DNA of 63,956 nt, the filler included, from Raillietiella orientalis (lineage: Eukaryota): assembly GCA_036172245.1 (NCBI GenBank). It is 3 parts of 3 records of this genome, joined end to end, with 100 filler letters (N's around TTAATTAATTAA, not from the genome) between each part and the next. Parts side by side here need not be neighbours in the genome. Positions count along the whole stretch, not along the records: positions 27,858 to 54,998 come from JAYWIR010000213.1; 2 more parts are not named here. The stretch is one strand, 5' to 3'. Under the pieces are notes generated by a model, which saw only the letters and a program-made list of their open reading frames with translations, did no database searches and was not told the origin of the DNA. The position numbers were made by a program, and so were the translations under genes. Positions 27,858 to 54,998 of this stretch are shown here, one piece after another (position 1 is the first letter of the stretch; each line of letters opens with the position of its first letter).

Positions 27858-30809
27858 TCGCGTCCTGCACAGCACCGAACTTGCAAATCGCATATAGGGT
27901 TTTCGAGACATTATGACCACGGTGTCCGATCACCCCCTGGTGCGGTTTTACCTAAGAACGGAGAAGCCTCGGCGAAGGCAAGGCATCATGGCGGCGCTCA
28001 TCAGCATGCCCGCCTGGTTCGAAACCCATCCCGGACATCAGGCTGTCCTGAAGACGATTCTGAGGGCAACAACAATCCGAAGAGTCGCCGACTGGGACAG
28101 CCTGAAACACAGGATACACCTGTTTGCAAACATGCAGTTCGGAGATAGGCGCTTGTGGCAGGAGGCGTACCGGGAGCTGAACACCCAAGATCGCTCACTC
28201 TCAAAGTACTTCGATCAGTACGAGAGTCGGTACGTCTTCAAGAACATAAAAGGGGAAGTCGGCGTGCTGGAGAAGAGAAATCTGGCAACAGATATCTTCT
28301 GCATCCAGTACGACGGTCAAAAGCGACAGTCGTCTGAGGACATCGTGGATGCGTTTCAAAGGCATTACACAAAACACTTTAGGCGACAACATCTCTGTCG
28401 CTCTAGTCAACAGACCTTTCTGAGCTACCTCGAGAAGAGGACCGACGATCTGCAGCGGAACAGACTGGAGGAGGAATTCTCCGAAGACGAGGTGAAGACT
28501 GCGTTTGGTCAACTACGCAAGGACGTGGCAGCGGGCTCTGACAGCGTACCCATCACTCACTATCAGCAGTAGTTGCATGTTTACCTGCGTTTGTTCCACC
28601 AGTTGACCCTCTGCATCCGCGAAGAAGGAAGACTTCCACAGTCCTTCTACGAGAGTCGGATGAAATTGTTGCCAAAAGGAGGCGACCTCACTCAGGTCGC
28701 TCAATGGAGGCCATTCTCGATCCTGAACACGGATGCCAAGTGTTTGGCGAAGAACTGGTCCAACCGCTTCGGCAAGGTCATGTCGAGGCTCATCTCTTCG
28801 GTCCAAACGTGTGCAGTCCCTGGACGTCACATGTCGGACAATGTCAAGTGTGCCCAGGCCACCGTCGGACTTAGCCGATACGTCGGCGAGAATCTGGCGC
28901 TGGTGTCCACTGACATGCAGAAGGCTTTCGACTCCATCGACCATGGGATCCTGCTGAAGGTTCTGGAGAAGCTAGGCCTTCCGGAACACTTCAGCAACTT
29001 CGTGAGGGTGGTACTCCATAACCAGTACTGCCGAATCAAAATCAACGGCCAGTAGACGGCAGCAATCCGGATGGAACGGGGAGTCAGCAGGGCGATTCGC
29101 TAAGTCCGATGCTGTTCGTCATCTACATGGAGGTGTTGTCGTCCTTTATCGAGAAGAGCGGACGACTGCAAGGCATAAGAATCGATGGCCAGCGTCTTAC
29201 TCAACTGGCATACGCTGATGATCTACTCTTCTTTATCAAGGGAGAGAGAAATCAACGAGCGTTTCTGGATGTGGTAGACCTGATGGATCAAGGCCTGTGA
29301 TTAAAGTACAACGCCCAGAAAAGCCAGCTCTTGCCCGTTGGAATCTTCGATCTCTTCAGTCTAGCGGGGAGAGGATTTCGAACGGTGGACAAGGCCAAGT
29401 ACCTGGGTGTCTACATTGGCGACGTCTCCGCGTCGAAGCTATTGTGGACCGAGATCCTAGGGAAAACGGCCAAGGAAGCAGCCAAGTACACCCGATCGGA
29501 CCTTGGAATGAAGCGAAAGGCCAACATATGGAATGGAGTACTCCTTCCAAAAGTGCTCTTCGGGGCGGCCTTCGCGAGGATGAACAAGGAAACCACAAGG
29601 GAGTTCGACAAGCTGCAGAGAAAAACACTGTGGGGCCACTATCGCCCAAGAGTCCGACTAAAAGCCCTTTGTCGTCCCAGGGAAGAAGGCGGTTCCGGGA
29701 TGAAGTCGCTTGCACACTTTATAGAAATTATGGATACGCGACACATCCTGGACATTGCCACTCACTGGGATAACTGGCCGTATGCGGCGCACAGGACCTA
29801 CGCGTTGTTGCTGAACAACTCGAAAGGCCTGATGACTGCGCTGCTAGGCCGAGCAGGCGAATGGAAAAAAATCTACCCAACCTGGACGAGGAAGCAACGG
29901 CTGGTGCGAAAGCACAAAATGAAGATCGTGTCGAGAAGAAGGGAACTCTGGTAGGACGAGTCCATGCTGGTGATCCTTTGGATGTTTCCTGTCCCGCCGG
30001 ACACGAGAAGCTATATCCACCAGCGGTCCAGAGTTACCCTTCATCGAATCCAGGAGTGGAAACGAGGAGGGTACCTACATCATACTCGTATACTTAGGTA
30101 TATAGAGATGATGTTAGGAAGGTTAACCCACATGACTCGCGAAGTGTGGTTCAATCACAACGACTTTGCGTGGTCCAGGGTAACCAAAACAAACCTCCGA
30201 AGACTAATTCAAGAAGAACACAGTGATATTAGTGCCTCCCAGGAAGCCGCCGATCGCTACGGGAGTGACCGGATCAATTTGTTAGCGATTGGCCCGACGC
30301 TCTGGAGAAGTGACCTTCCGCCGGGCTCCCTGGATGACCTCCTGATGTTTTATCATGGAGGAATCCAGAGTGGGTCCCGATTGCAGCACTACACCGGAAG
30401 AAGGGAAGATCGAGACTGCACAGCATGTGGAGACATCGACACGAGACTTCACGTATTGACGTGTCCCACATTGCTGCATGACTGGCTGATCCTGAAAAGG
30501 ATCATCGCACTCACCACCAGGTCCGTAATGGAGATCCTCGCCGGGATGTTTCAGGGGGATATTAATGTTCCCTGTTACAATCCCATGGTGAGGACGACCA
30601 TCGCCCTCTTCATCACCGCCACACTTGTGCGGTGGTGGAAGATGAGGAAAGCCAGAAGAGCCGCACCACCGATGGAGATCCTACAAGGGCTCCTGAAGAG
30701 GGAGATCGGCATTGGAAACTGTGGGAAAATCCAAGCCTGGACGTACCGATTCATCCTGAAGAGGATAGAAGACGACGCCCGGGACCAAACAGCAGGAAAC
30801 TCACCATGA
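27858..30809 (+). pseudogene. ORF2 of family X: APE C-terminus, reverse transcriptase, Zn finger (disrupted)
   Basis: SDH (27925), WRPFSILNTD, DMQKAFD, QGDSLSP (frameshifted), YADD (about 29211), YLG, GGSG and CTACG..H..C; in-frame stops at 28572, 29055 and 29954. Confidence 0.93.
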
Positions 30810-30952
30810 GTGCAGAACTTGTGAGAACCCAAGGACTTGATAGTGGGGAAAAAAAAGTGCTAATGGTATGCATGAGATTGTAGTGTGAATGTTTTTATAG
30901 AAAAATTTTAGAAAAATAAATTTACCCCACCCCTCGTGGGACTTGGGGAAAA
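27858..30952 (+). mobile_element. L1/Tx1-like non-LTR retrotransposon, family X copy 1 (cut at contig edge; inserted in ORF1 of Y copy 1)
   Basis: ORF2 remnant and 3' UTR, AATAAA at 30915-30920, terminal hairpin CCCCA...TGGGG then AAAA; the 3' part is collinear with 42832-43930 on the other strand. Confidence 0.9.
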
Positions 30953-32296
30953 CTACTGAGTCGGCGATGGGGCGACTGCATGCAGCGTGCTTTTGCTCGT
31001 CGCGACGCTGCTTTTTACGGCTTTCGTAGCCTTTGTAGAGGGACCTGCGCTGCAGTGGGGCTGTCCGGAACTCGGAAGGGACAACGGAACAGGGCAAGAA
31101 GTCTTCGCACTGTTGCGATCTTCCTGTTTTCCTACCTTTCCCTCCAGGGTGTTACGGAGATTTCCTGGTTCCTGGCTCCGTGGGCAGCGAGGGAGGGCAC
31201 GGCACGCGTCAAACCCTCGCGCTCCTTTTTAATTGGCTTTCCCGCCGTAAATTTTTACTTTTCGGGGCGTTGTGGGCGGGGATGCTTTATTTTCATCCGC
31301 GGATCGCTTGTTGTTTTTTCAGAGTTTTTGCGGACGACGCTTCTTAGTTGTCGCTGCGGCTTTTCGTGCAGTGGTCTCTTGAAACCGACGAATTTCCGCT
31401 GCGGTTCTTTTTCTTGCAAGTACCGGGCACTGTTTGCTTTCGTGCCCGGAATCTTTGCAATAGCGGCATCTTGGAGAGGGACACTCTTTAATTCGGTGCC
31501 CATCCTTGCCGCACTGCTCGCACGCGCGAGTCTGGCCTATGAACCACAGGTGAACGACCGTGCCGTTCAAATGCTGCTGCTTAGGCACAACACGCCTGTT
31601 CGCCACGGTGATCCGCGCGGAGGCTTGTCCAATGTGGACAGAGGGGAAATCCTTCAGAGGATTAGGCCTTCTCCACAAAGCGTGCACGGTGGCGAACTTC
31701 GCCAGCACGCATACGAAATCGCGGTCGGAGATTTCCGGTTCGATGTCGCACAATTGAACGACAAAAGAGTCGTCCATCGCGGTAGGTAGGACTTCCTTGC
31801 CATTGATGGTCAACGGCGCACGGAGAAGGCGCTGCACAAGTGCTGCGTTCTTGCACCGAATCTTCGTATATTCCATCCTGCTAGCAGGCATTATGGAAAG
31901 GAGTTCCTCCTCGCAAACGCCGATCAGGACGAGCTCATCGTTCAGCTCACGACCGATTCTCCCTTTGAGGGGCCCACTGACCTTATAACGGAGTGCAGGC
32001 ATGTATCCTGATGACACATATGCCTGGAACTCCGCATCGCAGAGTCTATGTCTTTGGGATTTAACGGCGGGGTAACTACTCACCGGAGGCGAGGAAACCA
32101 TTACGGAGGATGCGGCCAATTCAAGTGCAGCTGGAGTGCATCCAGTGGCATGCTCCTCCACACTAACCTCTGCACTGGCCATGTTCCACTATGCTACTTG
32201 GCAGATTGCACGGGAACACACAAGTGCAAGCGAAAACGCAGGCACAAAGTTGCCCAATCGTTGGCGCCGATAGACGCGGAAACACGTCTGCACTGC
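30953..32296 (-). mobile_element. Family Y copy 1: 5' end, 5' UTR and 5' part of ORF1 (inserted in the APE of Z1a)
   Basis: Starts GCAGTGCAGACGTGTTTCC, like the 5' end at 41475; collinear with 41475-42831. Confidence 0.85.
31319..32182 (-). pseudogene. ORF1 (gag-like nucleic-acid-binding protein) with two CCHC zinc knuckles; premature stop
   Basis: ATG-initiated 287-aa open frame with CEQCGKDGHRIKEC and CRYCKDSGHESKQC, preceded by an RRM-like region as in Tx1/L1 ORF1s; homology continues past the stop to 30953. Confidence 0.88.
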
Positions 32297-33606
32297 ACGA
32301 GCGTAAGAAATTAAACGGTTCTCCGGAGGGCGGCTATTGTACAGGTGTGGGAGTTCGAAAAGTTGCGGTGTCGCCTGCCTGCTTCGGCCAGCCGTCGAGG
32401 CCGCGGCTCGGGGCGTGCGGTTCGACGATCACGGTCGTGTGGGCCAGCTGACTCTTAGGTGGTCCGACTCGATCGATCTGATCGTCACGAACGTGTACGA
32501 ACAGAGCTGCGCGGACCTGATGACCAAGAGGGCAAGGTAAGAGTTTTTCCTTGCCCTCCGCCGAGACTGGCTGACCAAAGCAGGAGTGTGGAATGCCCAT
32601 CTGGTTGCAGGCGATTTCAACGTTTGCCTGAAACCAGATGCGCAGAATCCCGAGCGTGACCTGGTCAACGAGGTGTGCATGTCGGTGCACACCTGTAATT
32701 TGTTGGCCAGTGCACCGGGGATGGAAGACAGCATTGACCACGTGTTTCTTGACGAGCACCTGTGCCCTCGCGTGGGCAGGCGCGGCAAGTTACCGTGCGA
32801 GCTGTCCGACCATCGCCCGCTAGAACTCGAGATCGATCCGCGCGACAGGAGCCCCCCCTCGTCAGCGTGGCGTCCCCCAGGAAACTGACTGAAGCTCTTG
32901 GACGCGGCGGAACATCTCCGTACGTTCATACGAAGCTTCAGGCTGCGGACACTCCAGGATTGGGACCGCTTCAAGCGGTAGGAAATGGAGTTCTGCAACC
33001 AGTTCCCTCTCCACCGCCTACCTACGGGTTTTAACACCGGGGTCCGTAAAGAACGAGCCTACATACAGGCCCGTCATTACGCCAGAACCCTTGACATCCG
33101 CAGGCTGTCGGAATGCAAAGCGGGAGCAGAGAGGCAAGCCTGGCAGTCCGGATCGGCCAGCTTGCTGGACGATCAGGGCCAGGAGCACTCGGCACCTGCC
33201 CAAATCCGCGGCCTGCTACGGAGTTACTTCTCCTCCCTGTATGCCAGGGCACCTCCGGAAAGGAACGTCTCACGACTCCTGCTTCAGGAAGGCGCTCCAG
33301 CGATCGGATAGGAGGAGAGAAAGATTCTCGATGAGCCTTTCACGATGGACGAGATCCTCTCGGCCATCGGAAAGCTCAAGAGGCGAAAGGCTCCAGGGGA
33401 AGACGGCCTGCCCGCGGGGTTTTACCAAACTTTCGCGGCTGAGCTTACCATCCTGGTACAGCAATTCTCCTTGCTGATACGCGCGACTGGTGACGTTTCC
33501 TCCTCGTTTAGTTCGGCAAAGGTGGGGCTCCTCCCTAAGAGAGATCTGAGAAGCATGAATAACTGGCGTCCCATCACAATAGTGAATGCTGACTCCAAGT
33601 CGCTAG
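32297..33606 (+). mobile_element. Family Z1 copy a, part 1: ORF2 APE, linker and start of RT (disrupted)
   Basis: VTNVY, AGDFN, SIDHVF, LSDHRP, YFSSLYA, KAPGEDG, NWRPITIVNAD; collinear with about 53670-54970 (-). Confidence 0.9.
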
Positions 33607-33956: not shown

Positions 33957-36218
33957 AACGTTGCTCCTGGGCGAAGCATGGAGGCGAACCTCTTCCACCC
34001 TTCCACGTGGCAAGAGCTCAGACAAGAAAGAAGCTTGCTGCACAGCCGGAATTGCGATGCGTGCGCCGGCAAGGGGTCGGATGGTCGGGTGGGGGAGGGA
34101 GCCCTTGCGGTCGCAATCGACTTGCGGAAACCATTCGATTGCGTCTACCAGAATCTTCATCTGGAGCTTCTGGAACGCTTGGGCTTCCCGGTTTCATTAG
34201 TGGCCTATCTGCGCTCCTGCTGGCGCGACGCGCTTTTCAGCGTTTCTTTCAGCGCCCAGACCGTGCACGGCGTGCCGGTGCGGCGTACGATCCGGCAGGG
34301 AGACAGCCTGAGCCCCTTGCTCTTCAGTAACTACTTTGAATTGGTACTGAGAGAGTACAGGGGAACTCTGGCGCACCTGCCGCACGACTGTGCCGGTACG
34401 CCGGCCGTTTCAGCGTACGCGGACGACCTTCTGCTGCTGCTTCCTATGTCCACCTTGGCCTCGGCGGTCGAGGAGTTCTTCGACCTGCTGCATCGGGGAA
34501 CCGAACTTACGGTGAACGGAGCGAAGTCGTCCGTGATGCCAGTTGGTGCGGCGTGGGCAGGGCAGCAGGACTGGGTCCGTTTGAGAATCCTCACGGTGAG
34601 GTACTTCAAGTACCTTAATGTGCCGTTGGGGGACTACTCACCTGCGGAAGCGTGGTCCTGCTGCCTCCAAAAAGTAGAGACGGCGATCGGTCCGCTCCGA
34701 AGCGGCAGGTTTTTCCTGCCTGAACGGGCCGCTGTTTGGAACACGTTCGCGGCTCCAATCTTTCTCCCCCTGCTATTTGTTTGCCCTTCCACAGAGAGGA
34801 TTAAAATGGGGACAAACGACCTCCTCCGTATCGCTCTTCGGGGCAACGGGAGGGCCCGAGTTCGCTTAAAGGACTTGTGCGCTCCTCGTAGGGATGGTGG
34901 TCTGGGCCTCTCGACGCTGGAGCGGTTGAAGCGTGAGCTCCAGTTCCGAATGTCAGGAATTTTTCCAGAGTTGTTGTGCACCTGTTGGTGCGTCCCTGCA
35001 CGTCTCCTTCTCCAGCAAGCCACCGGCAAGATGGGACTGACGTCGTTTCTTGCACTGCGTCGCCGCGTCAACCGATGCGGGCTTCAGCTACGGAGGGTGG
35101 CTGGCGCTGTACCGGAAAAACCCAGGATTGGTCTCCTGTCGCCCTTTGAACGGTAGTGCCTGGTTACAGGAAACCGTTCGAACGTGGGGACAGTTCGGCA
35201 TGCAACGCTCCTAACAGGAACGAAGGTTCATGTTTGGGGGTTACAGAAGTTGCACGCTCCACGAGATCCTGGAGGATCCAAAGAATAGAGCGTGGGCAGG
35301 AAGAACCCCTCTCGCTGCTGCGCTGCCCTCCCTGATGAAAGGTCTGGAAAGCGATGTTGCGGCGAAGTGGGAGGTTACAGTAAAAATCTCCGGAAAGGAT
35401 AAGAAGATCGGAGAGTGAAAGACGGGCCAGTTAACAGACACTGCGTCCCCGAGTACGCCTCCCAATGGACTTCTGCGCTGGAGCGTGCTGCTCGATGTTC
35501 CTATTGAACATCTGAAGTGGCCCCCTGTGCTCATCAACACTTCCTCCTTCCCCTTGAAATGGCAGTTGTCTGCTCTCCTGTTGCAGCACTTGGGACTCTC
35601 CTGCAACTCCCGCCGACACCACTGGACCTGGGGAGCAGTGGACCCCAATTGCGTCAGGTGTGGGGAACGGGAGTCCCTCCCCCTCCTGCTAGTGGATTGT
35701 GTTGCCCATCTGCCCCTTTGTTTTCGCTTTGCCGCGGCCATCGGAATCCCCTGCGGCACTGAAAGCCCTCTTCGTTGCCGACGCCCTTCGGCCAGCATCC
35801 TCGTTAGCAGCTTTGTGCTGCCTACGCGGGATCGTCACCGCTTGGAGCAAGGCTACGGGAGGACAACGCGACCAGGGTGCCATACAGCCAGCCTCCCAGT
35901 TCCTGAGGAGAGCGTCGTGATGTCCCCACCTGGATCCAAGCATGCAGCAAGAGCTTTGCGGCTTCCTGCAAAGGATGCAACGGCCTTACCAGCTACAGTG
36001 ATCAGTTCCTGTACCCTCCCAGTTTTTTGTTTCGTTTTGGTTTTGTTTTTTGTTTTTCCCCCTCTCCCCTGCTGCCGTGTTGGACCGTGCCGGTCGGCGT
36101 ACTGGTGACCTGGGACGCTCTGTGTTTCTTCGTGCGTGGCTGGAGCAATGGTCCAGCCACCGCACGTCTTTGTAAATGTTTATTTTAGAATAAACTCATC
36201 GGCGAAATCCGGGTGAAA
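33957..36218 (+). mobile_element. Family Z1 copy a, part 2: RT, Zn finger and 3' UTR (3' end inserted in W)
   Basis: DLRKPFD, RQGDSLSP, YADD (34416), GGLGL, CVRCG; stop at about 36001, U-rich UTR, AATAAA at 36189-36194. Confidence 0.92.
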
Positions 36219-36920
36219 ATCGGACACCTTGCGAAGATCGCCCGGGACCTCCAAGGAACCCGGGGCTTCCTCAGGCGGAATGCAGCGACGCAGTTTTTGC
36301 AGCCGCAGATGCGGTTGCTTGGCTGTCGTGCGCCACGCGACGTTGCAGCTCGAGCCACGTGCGCAGGAAGAACAGGTTCGCCTCCATGGACCGCCCGGGA
36401 ACAGCGTAAGACTGCTCCGGACTTACCACGGATCCAGCGATCCTGCGTAGGCACGCTAGGCAGAGCCTGGGGAACAACTTGACGTCCGCATTCACCAAGG
36501 TGATGGGACGCCAGTTGCTTAAATGGCGCATGTCTTCGCCTTTCGGCAAGAGACGCACCCTTGCTGAGCGAAACGAGGCCGGTAGATTGCCCGTCTCTCG
36601 CATCAGCGCAGAAAGCCTCAGCACCAGGGGGATGAGTTTCGCCGCGATGCACAGTAAGAACTCCTCAGGCAGACCATCCTCACCTGGCGCCTTGCGCTTC
36701 TTGAGGCCCGCTATGGCGGAAGACACTTCTTCCGCCGTGATGGCGAGTCAAAAGTGACGCTTTCGTCCTCGTCGACCGCCGGGGAATCCGCCGGCAGGAG
36801 CAGCTCCGAGAGACTGCGTTCCTTCGGCTCCCTAGCATACAACTAGAAATAGTAGCGCTTTAAGAGGCGGCGAACTTCGGCCGCGCCCGAGCACTCCAGG
36901 CCCTGGTCGTCGAGCAGAAT
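36219..36920 (-). mobile_element. Element W: 5'-truncated Y-like ORF2 fragment (linker to RT motif A)
   Basis: LLDDQG, KAPGEDG, NWRPITLVN, ends at DLRKVSD; shares ERSLSELLLP.D.P.VDE with Y (about 45645) rather than with Z1/Z2. Confidence 0.85.
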
Positions 36921-37833
36921 TGGGGGGTCGGCTGTACTGGTAACGCGGCTGCCGCAACTCCTGTGGGGTCGTGTTCCTCGTCAAGTCAGCAATGGACGCT
37001 GCCGTAAAGTGCGTACGCTTTATGACGACGTTCGGGTCGGCCAGGTGATTCTCAGGTGGTTCGACTCGATCGATCTCATTGGCACAAACGTGTATGCTTC
37101 CAGCAGCAGACAGGGCTACAGCGAACGTAACGGGTTGCTGGAAACCCTGATGCGCGATTGGTTGGCGGAAACGAATGTGCGATAGGTTAACCTGATAGCG
37201 AGAGATTTCAATCTTCGCCTGTTAACAGGTGAGCCGGGAACACAATGGGAACTCGATGAACGAGTTGTGCGCCGCCATGCGTGCGCACAACTTGTTCGCA
37301 GATGGAAGGGGAATGGTCCGCAGTATCGATCGCGTCTTCCTCGACGCTGACCTGTGTACGCGTGTCGCCAAACAGGATAAGCTTGCGACGACGCTGTCGG
37401 TCCATTCCCGGTGAACTTTGGGGATGCGTCCGAGCGACAAAGGACCGCCTTCCAGGGTGCGGCATCTGCCGGGAGACTGTACGCGACTCTCAGCTGCGAA
37501 GGAACACCTTCGCGTATTCCTGAGAGACGTTACGCTTCAGAGCTTTAAGGACTGGGACCTCTTTATCGCCTCGTTTCGGGAATTCTGCGAGCAGTTCCCC
37601 CTGGACCGCCTGCCCTTCGGATTTGGCGAGGGCCTTCGCAACCTTCGGCCCTATTTACAGGCTCATCGGTACGAGAGATCCCCTAATGTCCGTCGCCAGG
37701 CCGAGTACTGCGCCAGGGCCGAACGCCAAGCCTGGCAAACCGGGTCGGCCAGCTTACTGGACGACCAGGGACGGGAATTTTCTACCGGCGGCGGTACGCC
37801 ATCTCGTGCGGAATTATTATTCCACCCTTTACG
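36921..37833 (+). mobile_element. Element V part 1 (Z2-like; outermost visible host): APE and linker
   Basis: GGRL, TNVYA, DFN, SIDRVF, WD.F; ends at RNYYSTLY. Confidence 0.85.
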
Positions 37834-40800: not shown

Positions 40801-41474
40801 CCTTAAAAAGGTCCCAGTCACCGAGATTCCGGAGGGTGACGCCTCTCAGGAATTAGCGAAGGTGTTCGTTCGCACCTGAGAGTCGCGTCCATTCCCCAAG
40901 CAGCCGCCACGCCTTGGAAAGGGGTCCCTTGTCGCGCAGGATACCTCGATAATTAGCCGGGAATGGTCCGACAGCGTCGACGCAAGTCTCCCCCGAGTGC
41001 CGAACCCGTGGACACAGGTCAGCATGCAGCAAAAAATGATCGATGCTGATAGCCATTCCCGGGAGCTTCATCAACAAGTTGCGCGTGCGCATGACAGCGC
41101 ACAACTTGTTGGCCGTCCGTTCCTGTGCGTGGGCATCAACTGAGAGCAGGCGCAGTTTCAAATCGCCAGCAATTAGGTGCGTCCTGTGGAAGTTCGCTTC
41201 CAATTGCCAGTCGCGCCTCAGAGTTTCCAGGAACGGCTTTCGTTCCTGGTACCTGAAAGGACCGCTCGCAGCGTACACATTTGTTACGACGAGGTCGATT
41301 GCGTCGTACAATCTGAGAATCAGCTGGCGGACACGACCGGCTTTGTCGAAGCGCACGCCCTTCACGGCTGCGTCGACCGCCGGCTTCACGAAGAACGCGA
41401 CATCACAGGTTTTGCGGGAGCCCTATTGCCACACTAGCCGCCCTCCTGCGATCCTTTCGATCTCCTGCGTTCGC
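37834..41474 (-). mobile_element. Family Z2 full-length copy, 3' part: most of ORF2 and 3' UTR (disrupted; YADD mutated to YADE)
   Basis: TNVYA, AGDL, SIDH, KAPGEDG, NWRPITIVN, QGDSRSP, YADE (about 39630), YLGVPL, CFRCE..H...C; stop at 38040, AATAAA at 37863-37858. Confidence 0.92.
41460..41474. repeat. Target-site duplication of Y copy 2 (partner at 48453-48469)
   Basis: ATCTCCTG--CGTTCGC vs ATCTCCTGGGCGTTCTC; the host APE sequence rejoins across it. Confidence 0.8.
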
Positions 41475-42831: not shown

Positions 42832-43930
42832 TTTCCCGAAGTCCCACAAGGGGTGAAATAAATTTAGTTTTCAAAAATTTTTCTTGAAAAACATTCACAC
42901 TACAGTCTCATTCATACCATTTGAACTGTTTTTATCAATCCGAAGTCCATGGGTTCACAAGTTCCGCACTCATGGTGGGTTTCCTGCTGTTTGGTCCCGA
43001 ACGTCGTCTTCTGCCCTCTTCCGGATGAATCGGTACGTCGAAGCTTAGATTTTCTCACAGTTTCCAGTGCCAATTTTCCTCTTCAGGAGCCCTTGTAGGA
43101 TCTCCATCGGTGGTGCGGCTCTCCTGGCTTTCCTCATTTTCCACCACCGCACAAGTATGGCGGTTATGAAGAGGGCAATGGTCGTCCTCACCATGAGATT
43201 GTAACAGAAAACATTACCATCCCCCTCAAACATCCCCGCGAGGACTTCCATTACGGATCCGTTCGTAAGTCCGATGATCCTTTTCAGGATCAGCCAGTCA
43301 TGCAGCAATGTGGGAAACGTCAAGACGTGGAGTCTCGTGTCGTTGTCTTCACATGCCGTGCAGTCTCAATCTTCCCGTCTTCCGGTATAGTACTGCAATC
43401 GAGACCCACTCAGGATTCCTTCATGATGAAACATCAGGAGATCATCCTGGGTGCCCGGTGGAAGGTCACTTCTCCAGAGCATCGTGCCAATAGCTAGCAA
43501 GTTGATCCAAATACTTCCATAGCGATCGGCGGATTCCTTGAGGGCACTGATGTCACGGTCTTCTTCCCGAACTAATCTTCGGAGGTTTGTTTTGAATACC
43601 CTGGATCACGCGAATTCGTTGTGGTAATGCCACACCTCGCGGGTCATGTGGATAAACCTTGCTAACATCATCTCTATATACCTAAGAATACGAGTGTGAT
43701 GTAGGTACCCTCCTCGTCTCCACTCCTGGATTCGTTGTAGAGTAACACTGGACCGCTGGTGAATCCAGCTTCTCGTGTCCGGCGAGACAGGAAGCATTCA
43801 AGGGATCACCAAGATGGACTTGTCCTGCCAGAGTTCAATACTTCTCTGCACGATCTTGATTCTGTGCTTTCGCACCAGCCGATGCTTTCTGGAACAGCTT
43901 GGGTCGATTTTTATCCATTCGCCTGCTCGG
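42832..43930 (-). mobile_element. Family X copy 2, 5'-truncated (1.1 kb), flanked by a ~20-bp target-site duplication
   Basis: Collinear with about 29849-30952; flanks are CCCTTCACCGATTCTGCAAG (42812-42831) and CCCTTCACCGACTAGGCAAG (43931-43950), 17/20 identical. Confidence 0.92.
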
Positions 43931-46900
43931 CCCTTCACCGACTAGGCAAGAGAGGAGCAATCTCGCGACAGCCAAGAAGGTGACTCCGCTTCCTCCCTTT
44001 AAAGGCGTGGCGAAAGCGACGCCCCTAGCAGCAAAAACTCCGGAAGCTTCCGAGACGAAAGTCGCGAAAGCGTCCAAAAATCGTGACGGAGAATGGAAGG
44101 TTGTGGAGAGGAAAAAAGAAAAATCTCCCAAGAATGCTTCGCAACCTCCATCTGCGAACTCCTTGGAAGCAAAGAACAGCCGCGTGAACAAGAAAACACG
44201 CGCGGAGGGTTCTTCTGCCTAGGAGAAAAAGACAGCGCCGTCAACGCTCGCAAGTCCGCCTCTGTCAACGCCGAGAAGACGATTCCTGTGCGATCGGACG
44301 GATGCAAACGCACGTCGTTTGCGCAAGCATCAGACTCCGTAAAGGAGCCCGATAACGCCCCTCAACGACCAGTTACTCGCGCAGGAGCGAGCGCCCGCAG
44401 GTCTGAACCCTTAGGCGTGACACGCTCGCCGAAGAACGGCGAGTGCTCACCCCGGAACCCACAGCTTCTGCACCTTGGGAGGAGCACTCGATTACGCGCA
44501 GGACGGTGGAGGCCGGTGGCGACCGCGCACTCCAGCCCCTCGTGCTGCTAAAAGCCCGCTCGCCGGATGAGGCGAGCACCACCGCCTCGCTTTCCCAGCC
44601 GTGATGAGGGCAATCGCGTCTACTCGTCGTGTTGTTGTGCCGTGCTGGAACGTCAAAGGTCTCCAACACGACGAGAAGTGGCGATTGTAGCTAACGCTCT
44701 GCGCGCCTTCGACTTTACGCCCCTGCAGGAGATTCACAGCATCTCCGGAGACCAGGCTGCCGAAATCGAACGGCGTGCGGGCGGAATGCTACATTATAGG
44801 TGCGGCGTCGCACTTACGTGTAGCTTCGCTTTCCTCGTACGAGGAACTTTGGCGGGAGCGGTGCGCGGCGTTCGCTTCGACACGGAAGGCCGAGTGGGAC
44901 AGCTTGTACTCAAGTTGTTCGACTCGATCGACCTTGTCGTAACGAACGTGTACGCGCCGAACGGTGCTGGACGAGGGCCGAAAGGATTGAGTTCTTTGGT
45001 ACCGTTCAGAGCCAGTGGCTCACTCGTTCTCACCCTAGTGTGGCGTATGTCATTGCGGGGGACTTTAACGTCCACCTGCTGACCGAGAATAGCGCACACA
45101 AAAGGGAAAAGTTGCTAGTGGAAGAGATGTACGCGTGCGTACACGTGTGTAACTTGTTCGCTAACGACCCTGTTATGGCGACATCACCAGGACATGTATT
45201 ACTTGATGAACACTTGCTCTCTCGAGTGGTTCGGAGAGGTCCCATTCCGTCCGTGCTTTCAGACCACAACAGGCTCGAGTTCGAGTTGCTCCCGCCAGGC
45301 AAGGGGCCTCCAAACTACGTTTGGAGGATACCGGCAGACTGACTAGGGCACCCGGAGGCGGGGTAGCATCTTCTCCAGTACCTTCGCGGCTTCGCCATAA
45401 GTGAGCTCGCTGACTGGGACGATCTGAAAAGATGTGTCCGCGAGTTTTGCTGCCAATTTTCCTTGCACCAGCTTCCGCGCGTCTTTGGAGAGGGTGTAGC
45501 CAACAGAAGAGCTTTTCTGCAGGCCCGCTTCTACTCCAGGCGCGCAAACGTTGGTCGATTATCCAAATACAAGGCCAAGGCTGAGTGCCAGGTCTGGCAG
45601 TCTGGAGCGACAGTTCTGCTCGACGACCAGGACCGAGATCAACGGAACGCAGTCTCTCCGAGCTGCTTCTGCCGATTGATGCACCTTTTGTAGACGAAAA
45701 GAAACGCGCGCGTTTCAATGAGCCCTTCACGGCAGAAGAAATTTCTTCGGCCATCTCGCGGCTCAAGAGACGAAAAGCGCCAGGCGAGGATGGTCTCCCC
45801 GCAGAATTATTGCAGTGCTTTGCGGCGGAGCTCATCCCCCTGGTTCTTCAACTCTCGTCGCTGATGCGAGACGCGGGCGATGTCCCCGCCTTGTTTCGCT
45901 AGGCGAAGGTGCGTCTCCTGCCGAAAGGCGGAGATTTGCGCCAACTGAACAATTGGCGTCCGATCACCTTAGTGAATTCGGACGTCGTGTTGTTCTCGAA
46001 ACTTTGGGTGGCGCGGATGGGGAGTATCGCGGAGTCTTTGGTAAGTCCGGAGCAGACCTACGCTGTTCCTGGGTGGTACATGGACTCGAACCGCTTATTC
46101 ATCCGCACATGGCTGCAATTGCAGCATCGCATAGCGATGGATCGTCGTGCGGAAGCGACGCCTTCGATCTCTCACCCACTGAGGCGCGGGTCGCAAAGGG
46201 AAACCTCGGAAGCCTTGGCGGTTGCAATAGATTTGCACGAAACTTTCGATTGCGTGAACCAAAAGCTTCTTCTTGAGCTCTTGTAACGTCTGGGCCTCTC
46301 GGCATCCCTGTTGGCTTACTTGCGCACCTGCTGGCGACACGCGATTACATCCATTGTTTTCAGTGGCTGTCACGTGTACGGCGTGCCGGTTAGGCGAGGA
46401 ATTAGGCAGGGCGATAGCTTAAGCCCGCTGCTCTTTAGCATCTATTTTGAAATGATGCTGGAGGCTTACAGGGTGACGCTAGCCAACCTGCCGAGCTCCT
46501 GTCCAGGTACGCCGGCCGTGGCAGCCTATGCCGGTGACCTGCTTCTCCTGTTGCCCGTGTCCACCAAGGCGGCGTTGCTTGAAGATTTCTTGAAGTTGAT
46601 CCGTCGAGTTGCGGGCGTGAGCGTCAACAGGAGGGAGAGCATGGTTGTTTCGGTTGGAGCGACGTGGGAGGGACAGTCCGACTGGATGCGCCAGGAGATC
46701 CCAACGGACAGGTACCTAAGGTACCTTGGCGTGCCGTTGGGCGATTTCTGCATCTCAGAAGCGTATTCGGACTGCCTTCGGAAGGCAGAGCATGCACTTG
46801 GCTTGTTCAGAGGAGGCGAGTTCGTCTTGGCGGAACGGGCCAGCATCTGGAACACCTTCGTTGCCCCCCTCCTCCGCTCCCTGTGTTTTGTTTGTCCACA

Positions 46901-48452
46901 CCCCCCAGGAAGTCTAAGTCTTGGCGCAGAGCCTTCTACGCAAAACGTTGTGGGGCGCTGCAAGGTCCCGCGTAACACTTAAAGACTTGGTGGCTCCACG
47001 TCAGGATGTAGGCTTGGGCATCCTAGAATTAAAAATCATCGAGCTGCAAGTGCAGTTTAGAATGCTGCTGCTTTCTGCCAAGCTGTGATGTACGCCGTGG
47101 TGCTTACCCGCACGACTTATACTAAGGAGCTGCACGGGAAGCGAGGGACTGCTATCGTTGCTGTCGCACTTTCGGCACACCAGAATAGGTTTGTCTTCCC
47201 GCTGAGGCAGCTGTCCTCATTGCTGGAAGCCCAATGTTGATCTCCTGCCTCCCCATGAACATTAATTCATGACGGCAGGAATCTTTTTCCATCGTGGGCA
47301 GCTTCCGAAGGAACGTGCCCGGAAGGTCTTCGGCGCATGCGACTTCTCCTTAGTCATCCAATGGACGAAGTCATGCAGGACAAGAAGATGTCGGATCGTC
47401 TGGCCGCCACACCGCTCGCCGCAGCGCTGTCTGCCCTAAGGGCAATCAACGACAGTTGCCTGTTGGCGAAATGGGAGTTATCCAGCACAATAGCGGGAGT
47501 CTGTAAGCTCCTCGGCTGCTAGACGACAAAGTAGCTGGTGGAAACTGCCACTCCTCGTAATCGAGAGAAGGGCTTGCTTCGGTGGAGTGAACATTTAAGT
47601 GTACCCCCCGAAGAGATAGTTGTCCCCCCGTTTGTTTGCACAGCTCCGTGTTCCCCTTAAAGTGGAAACAAGATGTGCTGCTCTTTTTACACTGGGGCTC
47701 TCACTGTAATCGGCAGCGAAGCATCGTTTCCGGGGGAGCTGCTTTGCCAAACTGTTTAAGGTGCGGTGATATCGAGTCTTTTTCGCACCTCTTGATGGAC
47801 TGCGGTGACCTCCGTGAACTGTGGCGAAGGCTAATTTCAGCCATTCTGCCGCAGGGAGGCACTGCCATTGATGTGCTGCGGCGCTTCTTCAGGAGGAATG
47901 GATTTTCGGTAGGCGCGATTGTCGCAACCATGTGTTGCATTCGCGGACTCGTGAAGGCTCGCTACGCCCTGGAGTTGTCAGCGCAGCGAAGGAAGGCTCA
48001 CCGGTTTGCAGCAGAATCCATGAAAAACGCTGCTAGGTGGTCTCATCTTCGTGACGAGGTCAAAAAGACATCGCGGGCATCCACCACCGGTTTACAGGCT
48101 TTTAGGAACTGCTAAATCCCGTTACCACTTCGTCCTGAAGCCCACATATACCCCTTCCCTGCTCGCTTTGCTAAAATACCGGTGCCATTACTATTATAAC
48201 GGTGAGAACCAGAGCGATCCCAAAGACTTTTGTCTCCGCGTCCCCCATTGATTTCATTTTATTTTGTTTTTGTTTGTTTGTTTTCCCAGTTCCCACAAAC
48301 TGATCTGTGTAATTCTGGCCTGCTTGCCAGCAATATTCTTTTAATAGTTGTGCCGTTGTCGGTTGGGGGCATGGTCCCCAACTGGTTTATTTCATATATT
48401 TATTTCTATTGTATTTGTATGAAATAAACGCCCCGGCGTGACCGGGTGAGAA
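43931..48452 (+). mobile_element. Family Y copy 2, 3' part: ORF1 C-terminus, complete but disrupted ORF2, 3' UTR
   Basis: CWNVKGL (about 44644), LQEIH, TNVYAP, AGDFN, SDHN, KAPGEDG, DLHETFD, RQGDSLSP, YAGD (46527), YLGVPL, CLRCG..H...C; stop at 48115, AATAAA at 48423-48428. Confidence 0.92.
48423..48452 (+). terminator. 3'-terminal signal: AATAAA followed by 24 nt containing a CCCGG-loop-CCGGG hairpin (also at 36189-36218 +, 33607-33636 -, 37834-37863 -, 51320-51349 -)
   Basis: Five copies from three families share the motif and spacing; none is followed by a poly(A) tail. Confidence 0.8.
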
Positions 48453-50684
48453 ATCTCCTGGGCGTTCTCTGCGGTGATCACGTCGATATCCTGCAGGAGA
48501 GCCAGGTCGAAGTCACGCGAGGTGGTGGCCGTGTCTCGTCTGTTGCCTTCGTCACGCAGCCCGTTCACGTTCCAACAGGACACGCTTAATTGACCGCGAC
48601 AGGTGAGCAAGGGTGTTACTCCTGGGAAAGTGGCAATGGGGCTCCCGCCACCCGGTCGGGCGGGACGGATGGAGGAATGGGATCACCGCGCACCGGTTCT
48701 CCCTCCTCCATGGGGGCCGATTCTTTTGCGAACCGCAATCGTTGAAGGGGGCGGGTTTCACGCACCTGCTCCCCCTCTTCCATGGGGGCCAATTTGTCGG
48801 CTGCGCTGGACGGCAAGGGGGAAGCGGTTGTCAAATGTCTGCTCCTTCTCTTCCATGGTGATCTCCTCAGGAGGTCCCACCGTTGGAAGAGGGCGGCAAT
48901 TACTTACCTTCTTCCCCTCCTCCTTGGGGGTGCTCAGCTGCTCTGTAGCAAAGGGTGGAAAAATCGCTCTCTACGTTCCCACTCTGCCGGCTTTCCCCTC
49001 GGCTGCCGGTGCTTCCCCCTCCTTCTTCGTCGGGATGCGCCTCTTCGGATTCTTTGACTTCCGTCCAGTCTTTTTCGAAGGCGCCTCCGCGGAGGAGGAC
49101 GCACTCCCGGCATCCAAGTCGTGGTCGCCTGTCGAAAGTGCCCTGGTCGCTGCCGGCCTTCGCAAGAACTTTCGTGCGCCGTTCTCACGCTCCGCGAGTT
49201 CGGCTGGAGCTCTTCTGCCGCCTGTTAGATGGCGGCGTCCTCGATTGCGGCGAGCTCCTCGCTCGGCTCTCCCTCTTTTTGCACTGAGGGTTCACCCTGC
49301 GCGGTCGTGACTTCGTCGTCAACGAGGTGGGGATATCTCTCCGGTGGCGTCTCGGGGACCAACACACGCTCCAAAGCGACCGAACATTCGCGGAGCAACG
49401 CGCGGCGTTGTCTCCTATTTAAGGGAGATGTCGCAGATTCCGGTGTGGTGCCTTCTGTGTTCTTTATTTTTTTCGTTTTAGTCTCCGCCTTATGCCAGCC
49501 CTTGCTCTCTCTATCGTCGTCGCGAGTATCCTTGACCGGCGCTTGCTGCACGGGTTCGGGCACTGGCTGTGGGTTCCGCCTCTCGGGTGTCTCCTTAGGC
49601 TTTTCCGTTCGCATCACGCGTTTCCCTTTGGCTTCATTCAAGGCAGGGGTTGCCCGGGTTTCGGGTTTAGAACACAGCTTCCGCAGGTGTCCCTTTTCGC
49701 CGCAGTAGAAGCACTGGATGTGGGGGCATCTTTTTTTAAGGTGCCCTGTGGCATTCCAGTGTCCACAGTACTTGGGCTTACCCACGTACCAGACGTCGAC
49801 GACCTGGTTGCCGAATTCTAGTTTGTGGGGAAGCCCATCGTTTTCGTTGACGGTCAAACGCGCTGCAGCCATGCGACTGAACAGTCTTCAGTAACTTATG
49901 AAGAAGTTTGGCTTGGTCCATACCGCGTGCAACGTACCGAATTTACTTAATTTCTCCTTCACGCCGGTTTTTGACATGCGGAGGGATACTCCCGTAAGAT
50001 GCGCTCCCACAGAGCGATCCTCGCTTACAGGGAAAACCTTTCTGGCTTCCAGCATGAGAGGGGTATTCAGCAGGCGTTCAGCCAGGCTTGCATCTCTGCA
50101 AGTGAGCTATACCCGCTTGCCCCCACTGAGCACTGAAAGGCGTTCCAGGTCCTCTTCTTTCACGTCTATCCGCTGCAATTCCCTCTCGAAATCGCGGCCG
50201 TTATTTTCAACGAACAGATCTCCTACCTTGTAAATCAAGGAGGGCTTGTATCCTTGTTCCAGGTAGGCGCGCTGTTCTGCTAAGGCTGCAGGAGATGGCG
50301 TTGCAGCCACGGAGCTCTAGGTTTTCGTGGATGAAGCAGACGGATCCAAATACGCGGTTGCCCCCTTTTTCAAGGGGGCACTTGCGGCGTTTTGCACCAA
50401 GGCGGTTGCCCCTTTTTTTCAAGGAATCGGTACCTCTTGTTTCCGGAGGGGTGGTTGCCTCCTTTTTCAAGAAGGTGGTTGCCCTCTCCTCCGTGGGGGC
50501 GGTTGCCCCCACCTATGTGGGTTGGGGAGAGGAATCATCCTCTTCCCCGCCAACTTACATCGCGGTGTCCTCAAGTATTCCTGCCATTTGACACCGGCGA
50601 TGAACCACTCACTAACACACTAAAAAAAAAGAATGAAACTTCGAAAACTCGCTCGGAAGAAGAGCAGAAAAAACACGTGCGCAC
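48453..50684 (-). mobile_element. Family Z2 full-length copy, 5' part: 5' UTR, ORF1 (50587 to 48616, disrupted) and APE N-terminus
   Basis: 5' end GTGCGCACGTGTTTTT; knuckles CGHWNATGHLKKRC (degenerate) and CFYCGEKGHLRKLC; SCWNVNGL..LLQD..ENAQEI, continuing at 41474. Confidence 0.88.
50353..50510 (-). repeat. Degenerate 24-bp (8-codon) tandem repeat in the N-terminus of Z2 ORF1
   Basis: GGCAACC recurs in 24-bp register over about 6.5 units; alternate units end in TTGAAAAA (LKK). Confidence 0.75.
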
Positions 50685-51319
50685 GCTCCCTTTATGCCAG
50701 GGCGCTCCCAGACCACGGTGCCTCTTGGCGCTTGCTTCCGGACGGTGCCCCGGCAATAGGGGAAAAGGAGTCGTTAAGCCTTGACGAGCCTTTTACCACC
50801 CGCGAAATTCTCGCCGCTATCAAAAGGCTCAAAAAACGTAAAGATCCAGGGGAGGACGGCTTGCCCGCGAAGTTCTTTCAGAGCTTCGCGAAAGAGCTGG
50901 CACTCCTGCTGCTTCAGTTGACAAGGTTGAGCCGTGACGAAGGCGATGTTCCCGAGTCGTTTCGGTCAGCCAGAGTGAGAATCCTTCCGAAACGAGGAGG
51001 CATCAGAGACTTCAAGAACAATCGTCCGATCACGATTGTGAACACGGACGCCAAGTTGGTTCCCGGGCTGTGGGCTTCGTGTCTGGGGCAGGTGGCAGAA
51101 TGCATAATTAGCCCGGAGCAGACTTATGCTGTTCCCGGACAAAGCATGGATGCCATCCTCTTCTTTGCAAGCACATGGCTTCACACGCGGAGGAGGTAGA
51201 AAGTAAGGAACGGTGATATTTGCAAAATAACTTAAAGGCGGTCTGTAAGACAGGAAAAGCAATCTAAGGGTTAAAATGGGGCCCTGGCGCTCGCAAACGA
51301 TCTACATAAGGCGTTCGAT
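50685..51319 (+). mobile_element. Element V part 2: linker to RT motif A
   Basis: Resumes at SLYARAL where part 1 stopped (STLY); KDPGEDG, RPITIVNTD; ends at DLHKAFD. The putative TSD is weak (9/12 match). Confidence 0.82.
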
Positions 51320-54300
51320 TTTCACCCGGATTTCGCCGGGACGTTTATTATGAAATAAACATTTACAAAGACATGCAGTGGCTGGACCATTGCTCCAGCC
51401 ACGCACGAAGAAACACAGAGCCTGCCGGATCACCGGTTTGCAGACCAGTACGGTCCACCATGGCAGCAGGGAGAAGGGGGAAAAACAAAAAAACAAAACA
51501 AAAAAAAGAAAAGAGATGTTGGGAGGGTAAGGGAAGGGATCACATTTGCTGGTGGGGCCGTTGCATCCATTGCAGGATGCCGGCAAGCTCCATCGGTATT
51601 CCTGGATCCAGGTGGGGCCATCGGGACGCCCTCCTCAAAAACTGGGAGGCTGGCTCGATGGCATTCAGGTCGTGTGGTCCTCCCGTAGCCTTGCTCCAGG
51701 CGGCTACGATCCCGCGAAGGCAGCACAGGGCTGCTAACAAGGCCGCTGGCCGAAGGGCGTCGGCAACGAAGAGGGCTTTAAGAACGTCCCTGGAATTGCC
51801 GAAGGGGAATCCGATAGCAGAAGCAAAGCGGAACCAAAGGGGCCGAAGGGCAACACAATCCACTAGCAGGTGGGGGAGGGACTCCCGTTCCCACACCTGA
51901 CGCAATTGGGGACCACTGCTCCCCAGGTCCAGTGGTGTCGGCGGGCGTTGCAAGGGAGTCCCCAGTGCTGCAACAGGAATGCCGAATCCTGCCATTTTAA
52001 GGAAAGGGTGGAGGTGTTCATTAGAACCGGGGCCCACTTCAAACGTTCAATGGGAACGTCGAGCAGCGCGCCCCAGCGTAGAAGTCCATTGGGAGGCGTA
52101 CTCGCGGTCGCAGCGTATGTTAACTGGCCCGTCTTCCACTCTCCTATCTTGTTCTCCTTTCCGGAGATTGTTACTTTAAACTCCCACTTCGCCGCAACAT
52201 CGCTGTCCAGATCTTCCATCAGGGAGGGCAGCGTAGCAGCGAGGAAGGTTCTTCCTGCCCACGCTCTCTTCTTTGGATCCTCCAGGTTCTCGCGGCGCGT
52301 GCAACTTCTGTAACCCCCAAACAGGAACCGTCGTTCCTGTTGAAAGCGTTGCATGCCGAACTGTCCCCACGTTCGATCCGTTTCCAGCAACCAGGCACTA
52401 CCGTTCCAAGGGACACAGGTGACCAATCCTGGGTATTATAGTGACAGCTCAGCCTCCCAACGCAGCTGAAGTCCGCATCGGTTAACGCGGCGACGGAGTG
52501 CAAGAAACGACGACAGTCCCGTCTTGCCGGTGGCTTGCTGGAGAAGGAGACGTGCAGGGACGCACAAACAGGTGAACCACAACTCTGGAACGAGTGCCGA
52601 CAAGCGTAACTGAAGCTGAAGCTCCAGCCGCTCCAGCGTCAGGAGGCCCAGACCACCATCCCGACGAGGAGCGCACAAGTCCTTTAAGCGGACTCGGGCC
52701 CTCCCGTTGCCCAAAAGGGCGATACGGAGGAAGTCCTTTGTCCGCTTTTTAATTCTCTCTGTGAGGGGCAAACAAAATGCAAGGAACGGAAAAGAGGAGC
52801 AGCGAACGTGTTCAAAACCGCGGCCCGTTCAGGCAGGAAAAACCTGCCGCCTCGGAACGGGAAAATCGCCGTCTCTACTTTTTGGAGGCAGCCAGACCAC
52901 GCTTCCGCAGGGGAGTGGTCCCCCAACGGCACACCAAGGGACTTGAAGTGCCTCACCGTGGGGATCCCCAAACGGACCCAGTACTGCTGCCCTGCCCACG
53001 CCGCACCAACTGACATCACGGACGACTTCGCCCTGTTCACCGTAAGTCCGGTTCCCCGATGCAGCAAGTCGAAGAACTCCTCGACCGCCGCAGCCGGAGT
53101 GGACATAGAGAACAGCAGCAGAAGGTCGTCCGCGTATGCTGAAACGGCCGGCGTCCCGGCACAGTCGTGCGGCAGGTGCGCCAGAGTTCCCCTGTACGCT
53201 CTCAGTACCAGCTCAAAGTAGGTACTGAAGAGCAAGTGGCTCAGGCTGTATCCCTGCCGGATCCCACGCCGCACCGGCATGCCGTGCACGGTGTGCCCGC
53301 AGAAGGTAACATTGATGAGCGCGTCGCGCTAGCAGGAGCGCAAATAGACCACTAATGAGGCTGGGAAGCCCATGCGTTCCAGAAGCTCCAGAAGGAGATT
53401 CTGGTCGACGCAATCGAATGCTTTCCGCAAGTCGATTGCGACCGCAAAGGCTCCCTCCCCCACCCGACCATTTAACCCCCTGCCGGCGCACGCACCGGAA
53501 TTCCGGATGCGCACCAAGCTCCTTTCATGTTAGAGCTCTAGCCAGGTGGAAGCGTGGAGCAGGTTCGCCTCCATGCTTCCCCCGGGAACAGCATATATCT
53601 GTACCGGGCAGATGAAGATGTTGGAAACCCGTCACAGACGCTCTGCCCAAACCTTAGCCAGCAGCCTGGCGTCCGCATTCACTATTGTGATAAGACGCCA
53701 GTTGTTCATGCTCCTCAGATCTCCTCTTTTAGGGAGGAGCCGCACCTTTGCCGAAGGAAACGAGGAGGGAACGTCACCTGTTTCGCGTATCAGCAAGGTG
53801 AGTTGCTGTACCAGGGGGGTAAGCTACGCCGCAAAAGTTCGATAAAACTTCGCGGGCACGCCGTCCTCCCCTGGAGCCTTTTGCCTCTTGAGCTTTCCGA
53901 TGGACGAGAGGATGTCGTCCATCATAAAAGTCTCGTCGAGGGTCATTCTCTGCTTCTCCCCGATCGTTGGAGCGCCTTCCGGAAGCAAGAGTCGTGAGAC
54001 GTTCCTCTCCGGAGGTGCCCTGGCATACAGGGAGGAGTAGTAACTTCGCAGCAAACCGCGGATTTGGGCAGGTGCCGAGTGCTCCTGGCCCCGATCGTCC
54101 AGTAAGCTGGCCGATCCGGACTACCAGGCTTGCCTTTCGGCTCCCGCTTCGTATTCTGCCAGCCTGCGGATGTCGGGCGTCCTGGCGTGACGACGGGCCT
54201 GCAGGAAGGCTCGTTCGTTACGGACCCCGTTCCCAAAACCCGTAGGTAAGCAGAGCAGAGGGAATTGGTCGCAGAACTCCTGGACTGACCGCTTGAAGCG

Positions 54301-54998
54301 GTCCCAATCCTGGAGTGTCCGCAGCCTGAAGCTCCGTATTAACGTGCGGAGATGTTCCGCCGCGTCCGGCAGCTTCAGCCAGTCCCCTGGGAGACGCCAC
54401 GCTGACAAGGGTATGCCCCTGTCGAGCGGATAGATCTCGAGGACTATCGGGCGTTGTTCGGATAGCTCGCAAGGTAACTTGCCACGCCTGCCCACGCAAG
54501 GGCACAGGTGCTCGTCAAGAAACACGTGGTCAATGCTGTCTTTCATCCCCGGTGCACTGGCCAACAAATTACAGGTGTGCACCGCCATGCGCACCTCGTT
54601 GACCAGGTCACGCTCGCGATTCTGCCCATCTGGTTTCAGGCTAACGTTGAAATCGCCTGCAAGCAGATGCGCATTCCGCACGCCTGCTTCGGTCAGCCAG
54701 TCTCGCCGGAGGGCAAGGAAAAACTCTTTCCTCGCCCTTCTGTTCATCAGGTCCGCGCCGCTCGGTGCGTACACGTTCGTGACGATCAGATCGATCGAGT
54801 CGGTCCACCTGAGAGTCAGCTGGACGACACGACCGTGATCGTCGAACCGCACGCCCTGAGCCGCGGCCTCGACGTCTTGCCGAAGCAGGTAGGCGTCACC
54901 GCAACTTTTCACTCTCCCACACCTGTACCATAGCCGCCCTACGGAGATCCGTTCGAACTCATGCGCTTGTTCTGCAGAGATTACGTGGATCTCCTGTA
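51320..54998 (-). mobile_element. Family Z1 copy b: nearly complete disrupted ORF2 and 3' UTR (cut at contig edge; inserted in V)
   Basis: QEIH, TNVYAP, AGDFN, SIDHVF, DLRKAFD, RQGYSLS, YADD (53136-53125), CVRC; stop at 51540, AATAAA at 51349-51344. Confidence 0.93.

Follow-up and report, generated by a model that had tools for sequence, protein, structure and literature searches.

Long interspersed nuclear elements (LINEs) that prefer other transposons as targets, and LINE clusters that grow by insertion into existing copies, are both already known. Target-specific LINEs encoding an apurinic/apyrimidinic endonuclease (APE) include Tx1, which inserts in Tx1D, and crocodilian Tx1 families, which insert in Mariner-N4_AMi; the targets of Tx1-8_Crp and Tx1-4_AMi are long terminal repeat (LTR) retrotransposons (PMC4494074, PMC4640811). 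The sections of these papers at hand describe the Tx1 clade as an animal group (PMC4494074). Clusters of Zepp and Zepp-like L1 elements in green algae arise by targeting of existing copies and are portrayed, in the excerpts available, as tandem arrays made mostly of 3' ends (PMC8226300, PMC3446292, PMC9940879), and Cnl1 of Cryptococcus is likewise reported to insert within itself, in tandem orientation and near telomeres (PMC9942834). Here we analysed a window of 63,956 bases, the whole stretch of DNA under study, from the Raillietiella orientalis assembly GCA_036172245.1, in which a LINE nest makes up the whole middle contig (27858-54998, 27,141 bases) between two satellite contigs. What this contig suggests as new is that several sister LINE lineages, here called X, Y (with the copy W), Z1 and Z2 (with the copy V), target each other at defined coding nucleotides, including motif A of the reverse transcriptase (RT), with all insertions antisense to the host element. 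A full-text literature search returned no account of LINE lineages lying antisense in each other's coding sites; for Zepp, copy orientation was taken from later summaries.

The window elements resemble LINEs of the Tx1 group, as far as the available parts of those reports characterise them, in their APE (putative in the window elements), in favouring other transposable elements as targets, in inserting in a defined orientation and in using multicopy, dispensable sequence. In contrast to that group, the targets here are sister LINE coding sequences and the targeting is reciprocal, as Y has landed in Z1, and Z1 in turn in the Y-like W. Zepp clusters share with the present contig that LINE copies lie within LINE copies in LINE-only nests that are GC-rich compared with their neighbours, tend to break assemblies and occur near satellites. 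As outlined in the portion of PMC8226300 at hand, and compared by description, Zepp is one family that targets itself in tandem, whereas here several lineages insert, all antisense and at defined coding sites. Such tandem self-targeting does not describe our contig, in which 0 of 9 insertions share the orientation of the host, most hosts belong to a lineage other than that of the insert, and two inserts have retained their full length. Cnl1, in the available part of its description, is also a non-LTR element that favours pre-existing copies and forms nested arrays (PMC9942834), but the insertions here are cross-lineage and antisense. Site-specific LINEs of the R1/R2 type are alike in nucleotide-precise reuse of targets, a short or absent poly(A) and the use of a multicopy 'safe harbour' (PMC4640811, PMC5035012, PMC1919474, as excerpted); the harbour here is another parasite's gene and not a host RNA gene or repeat.

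A nest of ten LINE copies

We parsed the contig by self-BLAST, by tblastn searches that took database relatives and frames of the contig itself as queries, and by direct reading of the junctions, and thereby assigned 27,141 of 27,141 bases to ten LINE copies (Table 1; the sum was made with boundaries shifted by no more than some 20 nt relative to those listed). X1 is nested in Y1, Y1 in Z1a, Z1a in W and W in V; on the other side, X2 lies in Y2, Y2 in Z2 and Z2 in V, and two further copies, Z1b and Z2-short, are inserted in V and Z1a, respectively. All of the insertions counted (n = 9) are antisense to their host. A preliminary description of this DNA had proposed a LINE nest without host DNA, the same insertion chains and nine insertions opposite to their hosts, and the parse and recount bear out each of these statements, with the qualification that the order of W and V is inferred because both ends at the W/V junction are internal. 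W was probably inserted in V and not the reverse. V breaks about 15-30 bp from the position homologous to the Y target, for which the chance of coincidence is about 0.01, and this is consistent with W being Y-like.

Intact 3' termini abut internal host sequence in seven inserts; the 3' ends of Y1 and W fall outside the contig. Three inserts lie entirely within the contig and have flanks that can be measured, and each of them carries a target-site duplication: X2 (20 bp, 42812-42831 / 43931-43950, 17 of 20 identical), Y2 (about 15 bp of the Z2 target, 41460-41474 / 48453-48469) and Z2 (9 bp, 37825-37833 / 50686-50694). When the insert plus one duplication copy was skipped, host frames were restored: open reading frame 1 (ORF1) of Y2 stays open for 292 codons through the X site, the endonuclease of Z2 for 88 codons through the Y site, and V for 307 codons once the 12.85-kb Z2 insert is bridged. 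Y2 (41475-48452) and Z2 (37834-50685) each measure 5,859 bp after restoration, in agreement with the two full-length elements of about 5.9 kb described earlier, save that the 5' end of Z2 lies at 50685 instead of 50684. Y1 and Y2 start with the same bases. Y2 and Z2 are equal in length yet only about 66-70% identical where alignable; the equality may be coincidental, the boundaries being accurate to ±2 nt. X2, Z2-short and W are 5'-truncated, and comparison with the empty site in Z1b showed that host bases at the 5' junction of Z2-short were lost and replaced rather than duplicated. Target-site duplications, 5' truncation and the absence of terminal repeats together conform to the hallmarks of LINE insertion.

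Reuse of target sites by three lineages

X, Y and Z1 each re-hit one host position, in two of two events per lineage (for Y, two of two 5' junctions). The 3' ends of X1 and X2 are followed by homologous Y sequence from the same position, within 1 nt, in the C-terminal part of Y ORF1, about 180 codons past the zinc knuckle; beyond it the restored frame continues for another 89 codons. The 5' termini of Y1 (in Z1a) and Y2 (in Z2) are at the identical nucleotide of the Z endonuclease region, 8-13 codons past a Q-E/Q-D motif, where residues are poorly conserved. Z1a and Z1b both have their 3' ends after T(T/C)CGA, a point within the codon for the Asp of the RT motif A sequence K-A-F-D, and their hosts belong to different lineages, Z1a being inserted in the Y-like W and Z1b in the Z2-like V; the contig has seven RT copies, of which two are occupied at this site and five carry no insert there. 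For any one lineage, the probability of striking a 5.9-kb element a second time at the same nucleotide and on the same strand is about 8.5e-5.

Reuse of the same position by three families in different host copies, as first noted in the preliminary description, is thus precise to within 1 nt. Its broader claim of site-specific insertion stands for X, Y and Z1 but not for Z2, which had two events at two sites, and its suggestion that conserved coding motifs serve as targets fits Z1, at RT motif A, but not X and Y, the sites of which are not strongly conserved. Z2 lies in the V linker (near residue 24 of P0003, a database relative from a short metagenome contig) and Z2-short in the RT of Z1a (after residue ~149). 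A common consensus of the two Z2 targets, with 14 of 41 positions matching by eye, was dismissed as chance.

Antisense polarity

The orientation of the nine insertions had been given a probability of about 1 in 512, which is an overstatement, since several hits on a single asymmetric site add no new information on orientation. An asymmetric site fixes orientation once it is chosen, which leaves about five independent choices behind the nine events: insertion of X into Y, of Y into Z, of Z1 into motif A, of Z2 into V and of Z2-short into Z1a. All-antisense insertion over five choices has p = 0.03 one-sided and 0.06 two-sided. Element 3' ends and their targets showed no homology that could impose polarity. 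Antisense polarity is an observed regularity without a mechanism and has moderate support.

With so few choices and no mechanistic reason for antisense insertion found, site targeting may be real while the uniform antisense orientation arose by chance over five choices of target, with neither a polarity rule nor selection behind it. We consider this rather unlikely: five of five is still suggestive, and self-nesting LINEs are described, in the parts of the literature available, as tandem arrays or tandem insertions, so that uniform antisense orientation is not the default.

Independence of the insertion events

Insertion could also have been directed to the island by chromatin or tethering instead of sequence, the coincident positions being local hot spots. 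The island is LINE-only and the Z2 lineage landed at two places, as such a process would allow, but regional targeting does not predict that three lineages return to their sites with a precision of 1 nt, the hosts sharing 63-78% identity, which makes it very improbable as the explanation of the contig.

A single BLAST alignment of 3,795 bp and 75.5% identity spans the X/Y and Y/Z junctions of both arrangements, and duplication of one nest therefore needed testing; a check for segmental duplication as the origin of the shared junctions had been set beforehand. The events came out independent. The two arrangements become less alike stepwise at the junctions, with identities of 837/960 (0.872) in X, 1030/1324 (0.778) in Y and 826/1306 (0.632) in Z (chi-square p = 2e-39; segment limits within 10 nt of the final boundaries). 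Z1b, the nearest kin of Z1a (88% identical), is empty at the Y site, whereas this site is occupied both in Z1a and in Z2, a much more distant copy. The length of X1 is at least 3.1 kb and X2 is truncated to 1.1 kb with its own 20-bp duplication, and the two Z1 events took place in W and V, hosts of different lineages. The ratio of nonsynonymous to synonymous substitutions (dN/dS) between copies is 0.24-0.57, with an excess of third-position changes, and much of the divergence therefore accrued in coding, presumably active, lineages. That the shared junctions descend from one ancestral nest, segmentally duplicated or mobilised as a composite and then diverged, is extremely improbable on this evidence.

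A chimeric repeat assembly with artefactual junctions, for which the short, unplaced and repeat-only nature of the contig would speak, is barely credible here, as misjoins run through homology in the same orientation, whereas intact 3' termini meet antisense host sequence in this contig, junctions carry duplications and host frames are restored on skipping the inserts.

3' ends and proposed mode of insertion

An AATAAA signal precedes the terminus by 24-32 nt in six of the seven visible 3' ends, and X2 has ACTAAA. In all seven, the signal is followed by a short GC hairpin and then by 2-4 A residues that form the end of the element. A poly(A) 3' tail is a feature of most L1 elements; none of the seven visible 3' ends has a long A run, and the L1-type tail is absent from these copies. 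Folds of the single hairpins gave z-scores of -1.2 to +0.8, with some windows offset by 4-21 nt.

We propose that the contig is probably a transposon-only island built by target-primed reverse transcription, in which at least four LINE lineages nick defined coding sites of each other. The lineages X, Y including W, Z1, and Z2 including V group in one LINE clade, and a lineage-specific endonuclease would nick the host element's sense strand at one particular site: X in the 3' part of Y ORF1, Y in the Z endonuclease region 8-13 codons past the Q-E/Q-D motif, and Z1 inside the Asp codon of the K-A-F-D motif in Y-like and Z2-like hosts. The nicked strand would then prime reverse transcription at the first A residues of an element RNA that is predicted to end about 24-32 nt past the AATAAA-type signal, in the GC hairpin plus 2-4 A, with no long poly(A) copied. 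A second nick 9-20 bp away would give rise to the target-site duplications, and the asymmetry of the target would impose a constant polarity per site, antisense to the host at all five sites seen. The endonuclease would be the presumptive source of site specificity. Antisense polarity may amount to a rule, the targeting and the mutual dependence of the lineages may hold genome-wide, and the island may be self-building and heterochromatic.

Several points weigh against this proposal. A single 27-kb contig carries all of the evidence, and clear events number just two for every site that was hit again; W, close to the Y site, is a possible third, ambiguous by 15-30 bp. Insertions of the Z2 lineage fell at two sites separated by about 370 bp, and the five nick sites have no obvious common consensus and a presumed link to the endonuclease. 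The orientation statistics are those given above, p = 0.03 one-sided and 0.06 two-sided. The 3' hairpin is conserved, pairing being seen in 33 of 35 cells and a single compensatory pair among five sequences, but it does no better than shuffles (198/500). Pfam scores of the endonuclease are below the curated cut-offs (Exo_endo_phos 19.1 against 24.5 bits in Z1b, Exo_endo_phos_2 16.9 against 27.4 bits in Y2). Finally, every copy has stops or frameshifts, and for this reason none is demonstrably active.

Domains and phylogenetic affiliation

A Pfam scan of 75 stop-to-stop frames gave matches in 16, on alternating strands, to RVT_1, zf-CCHC, zf-RVT and Exo_endo_phos. The elements encode an ORF1 with a CCHC knuckle, followed by a putative endonuclease, an RT and a C-terminal Cys/His motif. 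The RT is of the non-LTR type, RVT_1 exceeding its cut-off of 29.6 bits in X1 (46.9), Z1a (46.2) and Z1b (35.8) and scoring more weakly on W, Z2 and Y2. Three ORF1s carry zf-CCHC (25.3-29.2 bits); zf-RVT, at 21.2 and 18.3 bits, stays under its cut-off of 27.5, and the X1 frame contains a CX2CX7HX3C motif. The Q-E/Q-D motif was read in the endonuclease translations and the closest full-length database relatives carry PF03372, although a search of the PDB with the endonuclease frame returned no match. Earlier classification of the copies as APE/RT non-LTR elements is supported by Pfam, for the APE through matches below the cut-off, with a CCHC-type ORF1. Other PDB matches were weak and did not discriminate, though they slightly favour R2 (1.7e-9) over L1 ORF2p (about 4e-6 to 9e-6).

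An exhaustive protein search of 1.84 billion representatives recovered 1,873 relatives. Among the best 150 of these, only P0003 (64%) and P0004 (62%), each from a short metagenome contig, exceeded 40% identity, and the names of 20 database neighbours held no clade information. A word-index search for longer relatives yielded two matches with 28-29% identity, and an RT alignment search of metagenome contigs yielded 11 loci, all 23-31% identical. Prokaryote genome contigs contained 0 protein relatives and 0 matches to the 3'-end motif, and the protein atlas contained only generic eukaryote RVT_1 clusters.

In a quick maximum-likelihood RT tree of the seven window copies, P0003 and 60 of 120 usable database hits (the first in BLAST order), the window copies formed one clade, in which X1 joins with a Shimodaira-Hasegawa-like approximate likelihood ratio test (SH-aLRT) support of 97 and Y, Z, V, W and P0003 with a support of 100. 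W paired with Y2 (97), V with Z2 (85) and Z1a with Z1b (99), and P0003 was sister to Z1 (94). X has about 31-35% amino acid identity to the other copies. Among the sequences compared, the tree therefore unites all window copies, as expected from the initial view that they are related families of one clade. P0003 being sister to Z1, the Y and Z lineages had already split before the sources of the window and of the metagenome came apart.

Composition of the window

The window consists of three contigs joined by N runs around TTAATTAATTAA, the spacers at 27758-27857 and 54999-55098 each being 44 N + TTAATTAATTAA + 44 N; because only such spacers join them, contigs that stand side by side are uninformative on genomic neighbourhood. 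The G+C content is 0.56 in the LINE contig and 0.42 and 0.45 in the satellite contigs, and the ratio of observed to expected CpG is 0.98 in the former and 0.69 and 0.89 in the latter. The segments of the LINE contig are listed in Table 1.

Table 1. Segments of the LINE contig in window coordinates, with bit scores from Pfam and identities to other copies
Segment	Position	Strand	Content and context	Support
X1	27858-30952	+	Innermost insert of the left chain, 5' side cut by contig start; ORF2 RT, C-terminal Cys/His motif, 3' untranslated region (UTR) ending in hairpin+GAAAA	RVT_1 46.9; tblastn to P0001/P0003; frame 29301-30806 with 76% amino acid identity to X2
Y1, 5' part	30953-32296	-	5' UTR and ORF1 with CCHC knuckle, split by X1	zf-CCHC 25.3; homologous to Y2
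Z1a, endonuclease to early RT	32297-33605	+	Follows the Y1 insertion	87.9% identity to Z1b over 1,314 bp; P0003 residues 1-149
Z2-short	33606-~33960	-	5'-truncated 3' end (about 355 bp) of a Z2-like element in the Z1a RT	78.8% identity to Z2 3' end; 3' motif match
Z1a, RT to 3' terminus	~33961-36219	+	Ends in …CCGGGTGAAAA; abuts the antisense strand of W RT motif A	RVT_1 46.2; 86.3% identity to Z1b
W	36220-~36925	-	5'-truncated Y-like element (early RT), split at motif A by Z1a; 5' junction within the V endonuclease region	74.5% identity to Y2
V, part a	~36926-37833	+	Outermost host; endonuclease end and linker	70.6% identity to Z2 over 902 bp
Z2, 3' part	37834-41474	-	Endonuclease to 3' terminus (…GAGTGGCAA)	zf-RVT 21.2; RVT_1 19.6
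Y2, 5' part	41475-42831	+	5' UTR and ORF1 with CCHC knuckle	zf-CCHC 29.2
X2	42832-43930	-	5'-truncated X copy of 1,099 bp inside Y2 ORF1	Homology break at 29847/43932 marks the 5' truncation point
Y2, remainder	43931-48452	+	ORF1 end, endonuclease, RT, C-terminal zinc motif, 3' terminus (…CCGGGTGAGAA)	Exo_endo_phos_2 16.9; RVT_1 24.4; zf-RVT 18.3
Z2, 5' part	48453-50685	-	5' UTR, ORF1 with CCHC knuckle, endonuclease start (L-L-Q-D…)	zf-CCHC 25.3; ORF1 with 31.5% amino acid identity to Y1 ORF1
V, part b	50686-51318	+	Linker to RT motif A; ends inside the Asp codon of K-A-F-D at Z1b	78.2% identity to Z2; P0003 residues 25-234
Z1b	51319-54998	-	Endonuclease to 3' terminus (…CCGGGTGAAAA), 5' side cut by contig end; no interruption at the Y site or the Z2-short site	RVT_1 35.8; Exo_endo_phos 19.1

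Two open frames run antisense to ORF1, one of 366 codons over Y2 (41437-42534, minus strand) and one of 289 codons over Y1 (30920-31786, plus strand), with 55-70% protein identity to each other; they are probably a by-product of GC-rich, conserved DNA. The first contig (1-27757) is pure satellite with a unit of 278 bp (99.8 copies, 92% matches), as is the third (55099-63956), with a unit of 277 bp (32 copies, 92% matches). The two satellites are about 77% identical in the same orientation, have a strongly A-rich strand (AT skew 0.13-0.18) and show no relation to the middle contig.

Biological significance

Target-specific LINEs are usually viewed as sparing their host by landing in dispensable multicopy DNA. 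The harbour here would be a competitor's gene, and each insertion would kill a rival copy yet make new targets, a situation that would combine an arms race with mutual dependence of transposons in one genome. With RT motif A as the target, the victim could hardly mutate away. It is possible, though we hold it only tentatively and lean against it, that the sister LINE lineages form a closed ecosystem of obligate mutual parasites, each with an endonuclease for a coding site of another, including an RT active-site motif that cannot be changed, and each inserting always antisense. Together they would build and renew transposon-only islands with convergent transcripts, which may seed heterochromatin or centromeres. 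If the pattern is genome-wide, it would explain how repeat-only islands grow without touching genes, and several natural endonuclease/RT systems that are sequence-specific and have defined GC-rich targets would become available to research.

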